Origin: a virus
Taxonomy: Duplodnaviria > Heunggongvirae > Uroviricota > Caudoviricetes
Length of the DNA: 17,853 nucleotides
IMG/VR virus record: IMGVR_UViG_2877285697_000004
Location: 1-17,853 of that record
Strand: one strand, 5' to 3'
Of this stretch, positions 9,183 through 11,374 are shown piece by piece. The notes under the pieces were generated by a model that did no database searches, was not told the DNA's origin, and saw nothing but the letters and a program-made list of their open reading frames with translations. The first letter of the stretch is position 1; each line of letters starts with the position of its first letter. The position numbers and the translations under genes were made by a program.

Positions 9183-10060
9183 TTTATGGAGCGTGAGGAA
9201 TGGGTAAAGGCAGCAGTAAGGGGCATACCCCGCGCGAAGCGAAGGACAACCTGAAATCCACGCAGTTGCTGAGTGTGATTGATGCCATCAGCGAAGGGCC
9301 GGTTGAAGGTCCGGTGGATGGATTAAAAAGCGTGCTGCTGAACGGTACGCCGGTCCTGGACAGCGAGGGGAAGACAAACTTTTCCGGTGTTACGGTGGTG
9401 TTCCGCGCCGGCGAGCAGGAGCAGACACCGCCGGAGGGGTTTGAATCTTCCGGCTCAGAGACTGTGCTGGGTACGGAAGTGAAATACGACACGCCGATCA
9501 CCCGGACCATCACGTCGGCAAACATTGATCGTCTGCGCCTGACCTTCGGTGTGCAGGCACTGGTGGAAACCACCTCAAAGGGGGACCGGAATCCGTCGGA
9601 AGTCCGCCTGCTGGTTCAGATACAGCGTAACGGTGGCTGGGTGACGGAAAAAGACATCACCATTAAGGGCAAAACCACTTCGCAGTATCTGGCCTCGGTG
9701 GTGGTGGGTAACCTGCCGCCGCGCCCGTTTAATATCCGGATGCGCAGGATGACACCGGACAGCACCACAGACCAGCTGCAGAACAAAACGCTCTGGTCGT
9801 CGTACACCGAAATCATCGATGTGAAACAGTGCTACCCGAACACGGCGCTGGTCGGCGTGCAGGTGGATTCAGAGCAGTTCGGTAACCAGCAGGTGAGTCG
9901 CAATTATCATCTTCGCGGGCGCATTCTGCAGGTGCCGTCGAACTATAACCCGCAGACGCGGCAATACAGCGGTATCTGGGACGGAACGCTTAAGCCAGCA
10001 TACAGCAACAACATGGCCTGGTGTCTGTGGGACATGCTCACTCATCCGCGCTACGGCATG

Positions 10061-10070
10061 GGGAAACGTC
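10061..10070. repeat. Left target-site duplication GGGAAACGTC of the IS10-like element
   Basis: Identical 10-mer at 11365-11374 immediately after the right inverted repeat; corresponds to J codons G-K-R. Confidence 0.8.
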
Positions 10071-11364
10071 CTGAGGAATCCCCAGAAAACAAGACAGGCA
10101 TAGTGAGATGTGATCTAATTGATTGTGCTAACAATTTCAAGGAGATCACCACTATGCCTGCACGTTCATTATGCCAAAATTTCCTTAACAACATACTGGC
10201 CCCTTTGCATCTTTACCGTCAAAAATCACTGATTGACGCAACTAATGCTGTAATAAATGGCGCTTCCCTCACACTTACCAGTATCGGGCGTCATTTAACC
10301 GGTACGGCATCAGTTAAAAACAAAATAAAACGGGTGGATCGACTGTTGGGGAATCGACATTTGCAAAATGAGGTTTCCACCATTTTTCAGCGAATTACCC
10401 AAAAGATTACGCGGGGAATGTCTCGTGTTGTGATACTCATTGACTGGAGTGCTTATCATGCCTCTCGTTTTCAGCTTTTGCGGGCAAGCCTGGCATGTGA
10501 CGGGCGTTCTTTACCGTTGATGAGTTGTGTCGTTCCATCATCACAGACAGCGAATGCAGATGTACATGAGCGTTTTCTGGAATCGCTTGCTGAGTGCTTT
10601 TCCCCCGGGACTGATGTCATTGTTATTACAGATGCCGGTTTTCAGGGGCGATGGTTCCAACAGCTCCGCTCCCGTGGCTGGACCTATATTTGCCGGGTAC
10701 TGGGCAATCATTATTACAATGTTGGTAATGGCTGGGAAAAGGTGTCGGACTCAGGCACAAAAGCATCAACGACAGCAATTTATTTAGGTGAAGGCCTGCT
10801 GGGTCGAGATAAAAATGCACAACATGAAGGGCATTTTTATCTTTATAAAAGTAAGCCTAAAGGTCGTAGATTTAAACGCTCGAAGGAAAGAGCAACCAGA
10901 CCATCGGTGACGGCTAAAGCTCGTACTGCCGGGAAATCACCATGGTTTATTTTCACAAACAGTACTGAGTTCTCGCCAAAACAGGTAATGAAATTATACA
11001 GACGTAGAATGCAAATTGAGCAAAATTTCAGGGATGAAAAAAATCCTCGCTGGGGATTTGGACTACGGTTTGGTGCCAGTCATTCATCCGGGCGGGTCAC
11101 GGTATTGAGTCTGAGCGCAACATTAGCCAGTATCATTATGTGGTTAAGCGGTTTCAGCCTGGAAAACAAAGGGATACATCATAAATATCAGGCAAATACA
11201 GTGAAGCACAGGCGAGTCATCTCGTTATTAAAACTGGCGGAGAATGTGATTCGACATTCTCCACTCATACTAAACACACTGTCACTTGACGCAGGGCTGA
11301 ACGTTCTACAGCAACGGTATACCAATATGATAATGGTTTACTAAATTTTCTGGGGATCCCTCAG
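10071..11364 (+). mobile_element. IS4-family insertion sequence (IS10-like), about 1.29 kb, inserted in J
   Basis: Terminal inverted repeats CTGAGGAATCCCCAGAAAA (10071-10089) and TTTTCTGGGGATCCCTCAG (11346-11364); single transposase ORF; flanked by a perfect 10-bp direct repeat. Ends resemble IS10 outer ends (CTGATGAATCCCC) but are not identical. Confidence 0.8.
10154..11344 (+). CDS. IS4-family (IS10-like) DDE transposase, about 396 aa
   Basis: AAGGAG RBS 9 nt before ATG at 10154. Conserved blocks shared with IS10 transposase as recalled: [73 protein letters not shown]. In the supplied track it is fused in frame to the J N-terminal fragment (9200-11344). Confidence 0.8.
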
Positions 11365-11374
11365 GGGAAACGTC
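11365..11374. repeat. Right target-site duplication GGGAAACGTC of the IS10-like element
   Basis: Identical to 10061-10070. Confidence 0.8.

Follow-up and report, generated by a model that had tools for sequence, protein, structure and literature searches.

A recent ISEc60 insertion in the J (tail-tip) gene of a decayed lambda-like prophage and the apparently accidental J-transposase reading frame at its left end

Gene J and the inserted element

The window (the entire stretch of viral DNA that was analyzed, 17,853 nucleotides) carries the tail-tip gene J in two pieces. The 5' fragment, on the plus strand at positions 9200 to 10070 (codons 1 to 290 plus 1 nt), matches the Pfam domain FNIII-A_GpJ with an E value of 2.9e-42 and is colinear with gpJ of an Escherichia coli O121 prophage (L001). 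The 3' fragment, on the same strand at positions 11375 to 13983 (codons 291 to 1159 after removal of one repeat copy), covers the Pfam domains Phage-tail_3, Ig_J, Ig_J_second, Phage_Tail_Tip, and Ig_GpJ_C. Splicing out positions 10071 to 11374, i.e., the inserted element together with one copy of the flanking repeat, gives a stop-free J of 3480 nt that differs from the L001 gene at 12 nt and encodes an intact ORF of 1159 aa, with the full domain set and the colinear, full-length organization of a lambda-type tip attachment protein J. Neither the phage collection nor any of 5,426 complete E. coli genomes contained the same J::ISEc60 junction.

The prophage itself is a decayed lambda-like remnant whose upstream half is missing ahead of J. 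The early region and the 3' part of gene H have nothing but an IS600 element (positions 4733-5996) between them; this IS600 lacks a 3-bp duplication and brings together parts of the prophage that are not adjacent, which bears out the contrast drawn in the preliminary description between this IS3-family junction and the insertion in J. In the related strain RMDEC332, genes for the repressor, for replication, and for the Q antiterminator come next at that place. With J split, H truncated by IS600, and no head or late region upstream of H, this prophage should be scored as defective in genome annotations.

The element that interrupts J (plus strand, positions 10071 to 11364; 1294 bp) is a copy of ISEc60, an IS4-family insertion sequence that appears closest to the IS10 subgroup. 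It shows 99.7% nucleotide identity over 1294/1294 bp to copies in enteroinvasive E. coli (EIEC) that are labeled by PGAP as "IS4-like element ISEc60 family transposase," and the name used here rests on that label rather than on an ISfinder reference entry. Four nucleotides distinguish it from the common copy. EIEC CFSAN029787 and a plasmid of Shigella dysenteriae ATCC 12021 also carry ISEc60, with its length of 1294 bp, its ends, and the position of the 396-aa CDS all unchanged, and in some EIEC strains ISEc60 is recorded at 36-39 places per chromosome. An exact 32-nt left-end pattern had no matches in the contigs of species-representative genomes, as the species representatives do not carry ISEc60; a protein-seeded scan used in its place recovered 80 related loci. 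The literature found on ISEc60 and ISSfl3 consists only of resistome or catalogue mentions. The element is already known and its insertion is an ordinary event; besides its nucleotide differences, the window copy is set apart from other ISEc60 copies by its new site in a prophage J gene and its unusual, non-hairpin target.

Terminal inverted repeats of 19 nt, matching at 18 of 19 positions (1 mismatch), delimit the element. The left repeat, CTGAGGAATCCCCAGAAAA (plus strand, positions 10071 to 10089), contains no GATC, and the right repeat, CTGAGGGATCCCCAGAAAA (minus strand, the reverse complement of positions 11346 to 11364), includes a Dam site, GATC, at positions 11355-11358. Clear terminal inverted repeats were already recognized in the preliminary description, and 16 other copies of the element fix the ends. 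The repeat search in the window gives an inverted repeat of 20 nt (10070-10089 and 11346-11365), but only because the C and the G of the target on either side of the element are complementary by chance. An arrangement with a 20-nt inverted repeat and an 8-bp duplication was rejected because the flanking bases are noncomplementary in two other copies, L004 and L010.

With its CTGAGG...CCTCAG termini (CT...AG ends with CTGAGGAATCCCC) and its length of 1294 bp, ISEc60 fits the size and the 5'-CT ends of the IS10 subgroup; IS10 itself belongs to the same 1200-1350-bp size class and has the same YREK motif (PMC2266710). IS10 and IS10A also have 5'-CTGA-GAATCCCC ends, with the Dam GATC confined to the end that lies farther from the start of the transposase, and the transposase-proximal end of the IS10A copy L018, CTGAAGAATCCCC, has the same layout as the left repeat of ISEc60 and likewise no GATC.

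The transposase gene (plus strand, positions 10154 to 11344; 396 aa) is preceded by a Shine-Dalgarno sequence, AAGGAG (plus strand, positions 10139 to 10144), 9 nt 5' of the ATG at position 10154, and the same 1191-nt CDS is annotated by PGAP in other ISEc60 copies. The protein matches Pfam DDE_Tnp_1 (E value of 9.9e-21), and its best NCBIfam model is transpos_IS4_2, with 354 bits versus 48 bits for transpos_IS4_1. Its catalytic triad, D97, D160, and E289, has spacings of 63 and 129 residues, within the D(60-110)D(100-150)E range of the IS4 family, and the Y(2)R(3)E(6)K signature is present as Y282-R-R-R285-M-Q-I-E289-QNFRDE-K296. A single ORF without a frameshift, 19-nt inverted repeats, and a 10-bp duplication (about one helical turn) complete the IS4-family layout (De Palmenaer et al. 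2008, PMC2266710). The IS10A transposase is colinear with that of ISEc60 (36% aa identity; E value of 2e-74), and its D/D/E columns align with the triad (D97, D160-161, and E289-292). The label "IS10-like" in the preliminary description thus holds in the broad sense of CT...AG ends, DDE/YREK residues, and a colinear transposase, but the element is ISEc60 and not IS10 itself. Among the other named relatives that were found, ISSfl3 from the Shigella flexneri plasmid pCP301 is the closest; it is slightly longer (1301 bp), shares the left end CTGAGGAATCCCCAGAAAAC with ISEc60, and encodes a transposase with a full-length aa identity of 52%. Compared to the common ISEc60 protein WP_001111632.1, the transposase in the window carries, as a result of the four nucleotide differences, the replacements S283R, I321S, and K383N; a PDB sequence search with it returned nothing at E<=0.01.

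The leader hairpin and transposase expression

Positions 10095 to 10160 (plus strand) are predicted to form a leader hairpin, in which the outer arms (10095-10105 and 10150-10160) cover the AUG and the inner arms (10110-10122 and 10137-10149) cover the Shine-Dalgarno sequence. Its calculated folding energy is -37.9 kcal/mol (z score of -5.7), and the hairpin still forms with the J sequence upstream, whereas a transcript starting at position 10126 is unstructured (dG of -5.9; z score of +1.1). In 39 relatives, the outer helix is 98% paired, whereas sliding the partner columns leaves no more than 43% paired, and 7 of its 9 pairs show compensatory changes, a value reached in 0 of 500 shuffles. 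ISSfl3 has the same leader hairpin with compensatory changes. In the IS10A copy examined, an analogous inverted-repeat fold lies over the AUG, and RNA-OUT maps to the interval that corresponds to the leader hairpin of ISEc60. Across the family, the covariation supports an inverted repeat that occludes the start codon, as known from IS10, in which fold-back inhibition was reportedly described by Davis, Simons, and Kleckner in 1985. The counts of G-U (8) and A-C (6) cells do not discriminate between the strands, and the helix could serve an antisense RNA instead of, or besides, fold-back occlusion. Neither the window nor the ISEc60 copy L002 nor ISSfl3 matched the Rfam RNA-OUT model (RF00240) at E<=1, unlike IS10A, the positive control, which scored 85.9 bits; as ISEc60 has a hairpin of similar size in the corresponding place, an analogous antisense RNA is possible. 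The sole Rfam match in the element, to an lncRNA with an E value of 0.78, was judged to be due to chance.

A putative -10 element of the transposase promoter, TGATCTAAT (plus strand, positions 10111 to 10119), overlaps the Dam site GATC at positions 10112-10115, and the motif is conserved across the aligned leaders. The IS10A copy L018 has a similar sequence, TGATCAAAT, in the corresponding position, and in IS10 a Dam site overlaps the -10 element of pIN (PMC5006887). In both ISEc60 and IS10A, the GATC overlaps a -10-like TGATC(A/T)AAT motif. A consensus promoter scan of the leader did not flag this element, owing to the C at its position 2. Judging from IS10, the proposed pIN promoter of ISEc60 would be weak and Dam sensitive, and the transposase would normally be translated from its own AAGGAG and ATG (positions 10139 and 10154) on a short transcript starting near position 10126. 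Transcripts coming from J would carry the upstream arms and would be expected to fold, burying the Shine-Dalgarno sequence and the AUG in the conserved hairpin, so that internal initiation on such read-through mRNA should be blocked.

The composite J-transposase reading frame

As noted in the preliminary description, the frame of J continues into that of the transposase: positions 9200 to 11344 (plus strand) form a single open frame of 714 aa that comprises J(1-290), 28 leader codons starting at position 10070, and the transposase of 396 aa. Only one contig was found to carry this exact composite ORF, in the public assembly CP026827.1 (apparently S. dysenteriae ATCC 12021), where it is called as a single gene. 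The two remaining frames into the left end are closed, one by a TGA at element nucleotides 2-4 and the other by a stop after 10 codons. Among ∼58 related elements, a leader that lacks stops in the transposase frame is confined to ISEc60 and to relatives with 82-85% nucleotide identity to it; the ∼55 other leaders all contain stops, including those of ISSfl3 and of IS10A, whose leader is 106 nt long versus 83 nt in ISEc60. This comparison is consistent with the earlier suggestion that the frame match is a coincidence, and the fusion ORF looks like an accidental by-product of the insertion site and frame. Ribosomes already translating the J fragment would run through the hairpin and produce the J(1-290)-28 aa-transposase fusion, although its expression is probably very low.

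Alternatively, the fusion could be a genuine, expressed 714-aa product, translated from the J ATG at position 9200, that is active or regulatory and bypasses the translational controls of the element. The frame is indeed open from end to end, and the hairpin that should stop internal initiation on read-through mRNA should not stop elongating ribosomes. In addition, the leader has remained open in the three closest lineages (ISEc60, L020, and L021/L025) despite a 1-nt indel in L020, and ISEc60 has expanded to its high per-chromosome numbers in some strains. Nevertheless, this alternative appears improbable. The in-frame stops in the more distant relatives mean that an open leader is not a family feature, and a stop-free run of 28 codons has a chance of about 1 in 4. 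The N-terminal extension of 318 aa would be attached to the part of the protein that binds the element ends in the related Tn5 transposase, which makes activity doubtful. Expression of the fusion is doubtful as well, since IS600 and early genes, and not the head and late-control region, lie upstream of the H fragment, leaving late control out of its usual place for J.

A broader version of this idea, to be given marginally less credence still, is that the loss of leader stops in ISEc60 leads to site-dependent bursts of fusion synthesis that escape hairpin control and may feed the accumulation of 36-39 copies. If so, one-third of same-orientation insertions into expressed genes would generate a host-protein::transposase fusion, J'::tnp being one such case, and the fusion-making ribosomes would melt the start-codon hairpin and thereby escape the protection against expression from outside. 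In annotations, the 714-aa "gene" of the public record should give way to two separate features, a J pseudogene fragment and the ISEc60 transposase.

Target-site duplication and target choice

The ISEc60 copy in J is bracketed by two perfectly matching 10-bp copies of GGGAAACGTC, at positions 10061 to 10070 and 11365 to 11374. Uninterrupted J contains this sequence once (gpJ of L001 has ...CATGGGGAAACGTCTTGG... a single time), identifying the flanking repeats as a duplication of one target, and the probability of a chance 10-nt match at exactly both junctions is ∼1e-6. The perfect duplication, the single target, and the J gene restored by removal of the element indicate that the insertion was simple and recent, in agreement with the preliminary description, as do the absence of the insertion from the complete E. 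coli genomes and the single contig found with the fusion ORF. It is very probable that the locus as a whole reflects a recent, ordinary ISEc60 insertion with its normal 10-bp duplication and an incidental fusion ORF. ISEc60 would have entered J by cut-and-paste transposition at codon 290/291, in a lambda-like prophage remnant of a Shigella/EIEC-type chromosome; the transposase would have made staggered target cuts 10 bp apart, their repair would have duplicated GGGAAACGTC, and J would have been inactivated. The understanding of such events is not changed by this case, a routine IS insertion into a decaying prophage in an IS-rich Shigella/EIEC genome.

It is very unlikely that ISEc60 entered J through homologous recombination or gene conversion with another copy of itself, or through a larger rearrangement. 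In favor of such a route, 5 of the 16 other ISEc60 copies, all in E. coli, have no duplication and look like recombinants, at least one pair of copies shows an inversion (the left flank of L016, read as its reverse complement, gives the right flank of L012), and the neighboring IS600 also lacks a duplication. However, the element in J has one half of the same gene on each side, correctly ordered and oriented, and the flanks carry a perfect 10-bp duplication of a sequence that intact J contains only once; this pattern marks a primary insertion.

The direct transposition of ISEc60 into J is accompanied by a duplication of the length that is usual for this element and its clade, 10 bp, unlike the 9 bp of IS10 (PMC2266710). 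Besides the 5 copies without any duplication, the 16 other copies, checked as the preliminary description had proposed, include 9 with a 10-bp duplication and 2 with an 11-bp one, so that 9 of the 11 other duplicated copies share with the window copy a departure from the 9-bp direct repeats that characterize the IS10 subgroup. At 40 nonredundant sites of ISEc60 and its relatives, the duplication is 10 bp at 29, 9 bp at 6, 11 bp at 4, and 8 bp at 1. The preliminary description had tentatively ascribed the tenth base to a 1-nt uncertainty in the position of the element end, which would make the true duplication 9 bp, as tabulated for IS10-subgroup elements (PMC2266710, Table 1) and as seen in the single ISSfl3 copy examined. 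Taken alone, the window leaves the right end ambiguous, as the G before the left repeat equals the last base of ISEc60. Yet the left end is fixed by the window itself (a T follows the right repeat, whereas ISEc60 starts with C) and the right end by L004 and L010 (a T precedes the left repeat, whereas ISEc60 ends with G). A 9-bp duplication would require asymmetric ends, and with constant ends the duplication is still 10 bp in 9 ISEc60 copies and at 29 of the 40 sites; this explanation is refuted and retains almost no probability.

Duplications of 10-12 bp are known for IS231A, an IS4-family element of Bacillus thuringiensis (PMC2266710, Table 1). The targets of the ISEc60 clade are GC-stem hairpins of the GGG-N4-CCC type, and the clade shows a strong preference for the loops of GC-rich, terminator-like hairpins. 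IS10, by comparison, prefers the NGCTNAGCN hotspot. A symmetric target preference of the GGG(N)5CCC type, resembling the GGG-N4-CCC targets of the ISEc60 clade, was reportedly described for IS231A by Hallet and coworkers in 1994. The likeness is limited to behavior; IS231A belongs to another subgroup, has 5'-CAT ends, is larger, and resides in Bacillus hosts (PMC2266710). The literature on targeting of terminators by IS4-family elements yielded nothing informative. An IS10-related clade that combines 10-bp rather than 9-bp duplications with hairpin-loop targeting is of modest use for IS biology. The target in J is an atypical, non-hairpin-type site for ISEc60: it is nonpalindromic, with symmetry at only 2 of 8 positions, versus the symmetric targets that prevail in the family.

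An ISEc60 copy in the tail-tip gene J

The J region (9200-13983) is a lambda-type tail-tip gene interrupted by a 1,294-bp insertion sequence at 10071-11364, whose terminal inverted repeats (left, CTGAGGAATCCCCAGAAAA; right, the reverse complement of CTGAGGGATCCCCAGAAAA) match at 18 of 19 positions. J codons 1-290 (9200-10069) encode the Pfam domain FNIII-A_GpJ (E = 2.9e-42), and the remainder of the gene (11375-13983) encodes Phage-tail_3, Ig_J, Ig_J_second, Phage_Tail_Tip, and Ig_GpJ_C (the full J domain set). Two identical copies of the target duplication GGGAAACGTC (10061-10070 and 11365-11374) bracket the element. 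In the uninterrupted gpJ of an Escherichia coli O121 prophage (...CATGGGGAAACGTCTTGGTG...), this 10-mer is present only once, and removal of 10071-11374 from the window restores a 3,480-nt open reading frame (ORF) that has no internal stop codons and differs from that gpJ at 12 nucleotides. J thus has no lesion other than the insertion, and both copies of the duplication remain intact; together, these features mark a simple, recent transposition. The preliminary description had already read the event in this way, with the flanking repeat as the duplication of a single target, and all its coordinates proved correct when re-checked in the sequence. The J::ISEc60 junction was absent from all complete E. 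coli genomes of the collection and from the phage records. The exact 714-aa product of the combined frame (see below) is recorded on a single contig, CP026827.1; the adjacent accession, CP026826, is a plasmid of Shigella dysenteriae strain ATCC 12021 that also carries ISEc60, and this adjacency suggests that the chromosome comes from the same strain.

Over its full length, the element is 99.7% identical to the copies labeled “IS4-like element ISEc60” by the NCBI pipeline, which are found chiefly in enteroinvasive E. coli (EIEC), where as many as 36-39 places have been recorded on one chromosome. The transposase gene (10154-11344, with AAGGAG 9 nt before the ATG) encodes one 396-aa protein that matches Pfam DDE_Tnp_1 and NCBIfam transpos_IS4_2 (354 bits). 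Four nucleotide differences from the common ISEc60 copy result in three amino acid changes relative to WP_001111632.1, S283R, I321S, and K383N (window positions 11002, 11115, and 11302, respectively), the change at 10330 being silent. S283R sits within the YREK motif region, turning Y-S-R-R into Y-R-R-R in the window copy. This transposase is 52% identical to that of ISSfl3 and 36% identical to that of IS10A (E = 2e-74, colinear across 372 aa); the catalytic columns of the latter align with D97, D160, and E289, and the Y(2)R(3)E(6)K motif consists of Y282, R285, E289, and K296. The element fits the size, CT ends, and YREK motif listed for the IS10 subgroup (PMC2266710), which makes the earlier term “IS10-like” a fair one for its kind, but the near-identity to the labeled copies identifies it by name as ISEc60, not IS10. 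The event itself is ordinary: a catalogued insertion sequence has landed in a gene of a prophage, within a Shigella/EIEC genome that is rich in such elements. IS specialists could perhaps find some interest in the 10-bp stagger of the clade, its targeting of GC-stem hairpins, and its covariation-supported start codon helix, although these side findings leave the J locus not novel.

Farther upstream, an IS600 copy (4733-5996, minus strand, 1,264 bp) has the flanks tat and ggg and hence no 3-bp duplication. On its left lies the early arm (int-xis) of the prophage, which it joins straight to the 3' part of the tape-measure gene H on its right. In RMDEC332, a related EIEC strain, this arm runs on into the repressor, replication, and Q-antiterminator genes, and IS600 is found 228 bp away, after the equivalent of window position 4505, within an otherwise complete early region. 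The layout of the window thus reflects a deletion or recombination associated with IS600. The preliminary description, whose observation of the J insertion is confirmed and whose interpretation stands except on the length of the 10-bp repeat (see below), had omitted both this missing upstream half of the prophage and the leader hairpin described below.

Length and choice of the target duplication

The 10-bp length of the duplication had been tentatively ascribed to a 1-nt uncertainty in the position of the element end. End placement and duplication length were judged on 16 other E. coli copies of ISEc60 with flanks. The left end is set by the window itself, where the right repeat is followed by T whereas the first base of the element is C; the right end is set by loci L004 and L010, where the left repeat is preceded by T whereas the last base of the element is G. 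These flanks exclude a 1-nt error as the source of the tenth base pair. With the ends held constant, duplications of 10 bp were found in 9 of the 16 copies, 11 bp in 2, and none in 5, so that the comparison suggested in the preliminary description gives 10 bp in 9 of the 11 copies that have duplications. Once 80 relatives found in other species (34-86% aa identity) were added, the sample comprised 40 non-redundant sites with perfect duplications, which were of 10 bp in 29 cases, 9 bp in 6, 11 bp in 4, and 8 bp in 1. These counts identify 10 bp as the characteristic stagger of the ISEc60 clade and as a real departure from the 9-bp direct repeats that Table 1 of PMC2266710 gives for the IS10 subgroup. 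The inverted repeat seems to be 20 nt long only because targets in this clade usually begin with G and finish with C.

Target preference was surveyed in the flanks of the 16 ISEc60 copies (L002-L017), a close relative (L020), and the relatives' loci L024-L096, with which window positions 10047-10084 were compared. Most insertions of ISEc60 and its relatives lie in GC-rich palindromes, within the loop and the inner part of the stem; the ISEc60 pattern is roughly GGG-WWWN-CCC. Many of these targets are flanked by A-runs and T-runs and therefore resemble intrinsic terminators after genes such as nupC and deoD. At the tested positions, symmetry is 8/8 at many sites versus 2/8 at the J site, which by this measure is an off-consensus exception to the terminator-like hairpin targeting of the clade. 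A terminator-like hairpin, AAACCGCCTGCGGGCGGTTTTGTCGTTT, was noticed by eye between I and J (9158-9186), ∼900 bp upstream of the site used; it is of the GC-stem, short-loop type that the clade usually targets.

Leader hairpin and read-through from J

The 5' part of J and the transposase gene form one uninterrupted ORF of 714 aa, as the preliminary description had stated; the ORF listing and direct translation both place it between the J ATG (9200) and the transposase stop (11344). Three frames enter the left end: one meets a stop immediately (C-TGA), another does so after 10 codons, and the third, that of the transposase, stays open throughout the 83-nt leader. J happens to be in register with this third frame. 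Among ∼58 distinct leaders, this frame is open only in ISEc60 and its two closest relatives, L020 and L021/L025 (82-85% nt identity), with in-frame stops in ISSfl3, a Salmonella relative, a Buttiauxella relative (72% aa identity), IS10A, and all others. A 28-codon stop-free run is not unusual (the chance is roughly 1 in 4), so coincidence, as originally proposed, is the best reading of the in-frame read-through.

Within the leader is a nested inverted repeat, with the outer arms (10095-10105/10150-10160) over the AUG and the inner arms (10110-10122/10137-10149) over the Shine-Dalgarno (SD) sequence. Its RNA is predicted to fold at -37.9 kcal/mol (z = -5.7), and the fold is kept with J sequence added upstream, whereas a transcript from 10126 is predicted to be unstructured (-5.9 kcal/mol, z = +1.1). 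For the outer helix, 98% pairing and compensatory changes at 7 of 9 pairs were found across 39 relatives; none of 500 shuffles reached the observed values, and slid columns were at most 43% paired. IS10A has an inverted repeat similarly placed over its AUG. The Rfam RNA-OUT model matched IS10A at element nt 46-114 (ATG at nt 107), an interval equivalent to the ISEc60 hairpin (nt 25-90, ATG at nt 84), but gave no match to ISEc60. The ISEc60 motif TGATCTAAT (10111-10119, with GATC) is paralleled by TGATCAAAT in IS10A, and in IS10 a Dam site overlaps the -10 element of pIN (PMC5006887). The sole mismatch between the inverted repeats of ISEc60 creates a GATC in the right end only, and IS10A likewise has GATC in that one end only.

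From the hairpin, its covariation, the -10-like motif, the GATC, and the parallels with IS10A, we infer an IS10-type control layout in ISEc60. A weak Dam-sensitive promoter would then lie within the inverted repeat, native transposase mRNA would lack the 5' arms of the repeat, and an antisense RNA might be produced from the same repeat. Transcripts arriving from outside the element would have their SD and AUG buried, an occlusion reportedly described for outside-initiated IS10 transcripts by Davis, Simons, and Kleckner in 1985, so independent initiation at 10154 on a J read-through mRNA should be poor. Ribosomes translating the 5' fragment of J in frame would melt the hairpin and produce a J-transposase fusion. 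However, with IS600 and early genes upstream of the H fragment instead of the usual head and late-control region, this fragment would have no obvious strong promoter, and the J(1-290)-transposase fusion, possible on paper, would probably be made at trace levels. The conserved helix could act in an antisense RNA, in the fold of the sense transcript, or in both, since the G-U and A-C counts favor neither strand.

Copies without duplications, tandem copies, and distant relatives

The five ISEc60 copies without duplications (L005, L011, L012, L013, and L016) appear to have arisen by recombination among copies. L012 and L016 share a flank in opposite orientations (the right flank of the former is the reverse complement of the left flank of the latter), and a nupC-side flank is common to L012 and L014. 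This sharing indicates inversions or recombination between ISEc60 copies in strains that carry 36-39 of them. In L002, L013, and L016, the right flank GGGATTTACC leads directly into another ISEc60 left end, the two elements being separated by just one 10-bp target copy. Such tandems suggest either repeated hits on the same hotspot or propagation of a dimer.

A decayed relative, 82% identical to ISEc60, is found with identical flanks in the chromosome of E. coli TC24 (L021) and in Yersinia artesiana (L025), at a site with an apparent 8-bp duplication within the palindrome CAGGGGGGATATCCCCCTG. The identity of the flanks suggests that a larger common segment moved between these genera. Contig16 of Microbacterium tenebrionis (1,464 bp) consists almost entirely of a full-length relative of the enterobacterial type (54% aa identity), whose presence in an actinobacterial assembly may reflect contamination or a recent transfer.
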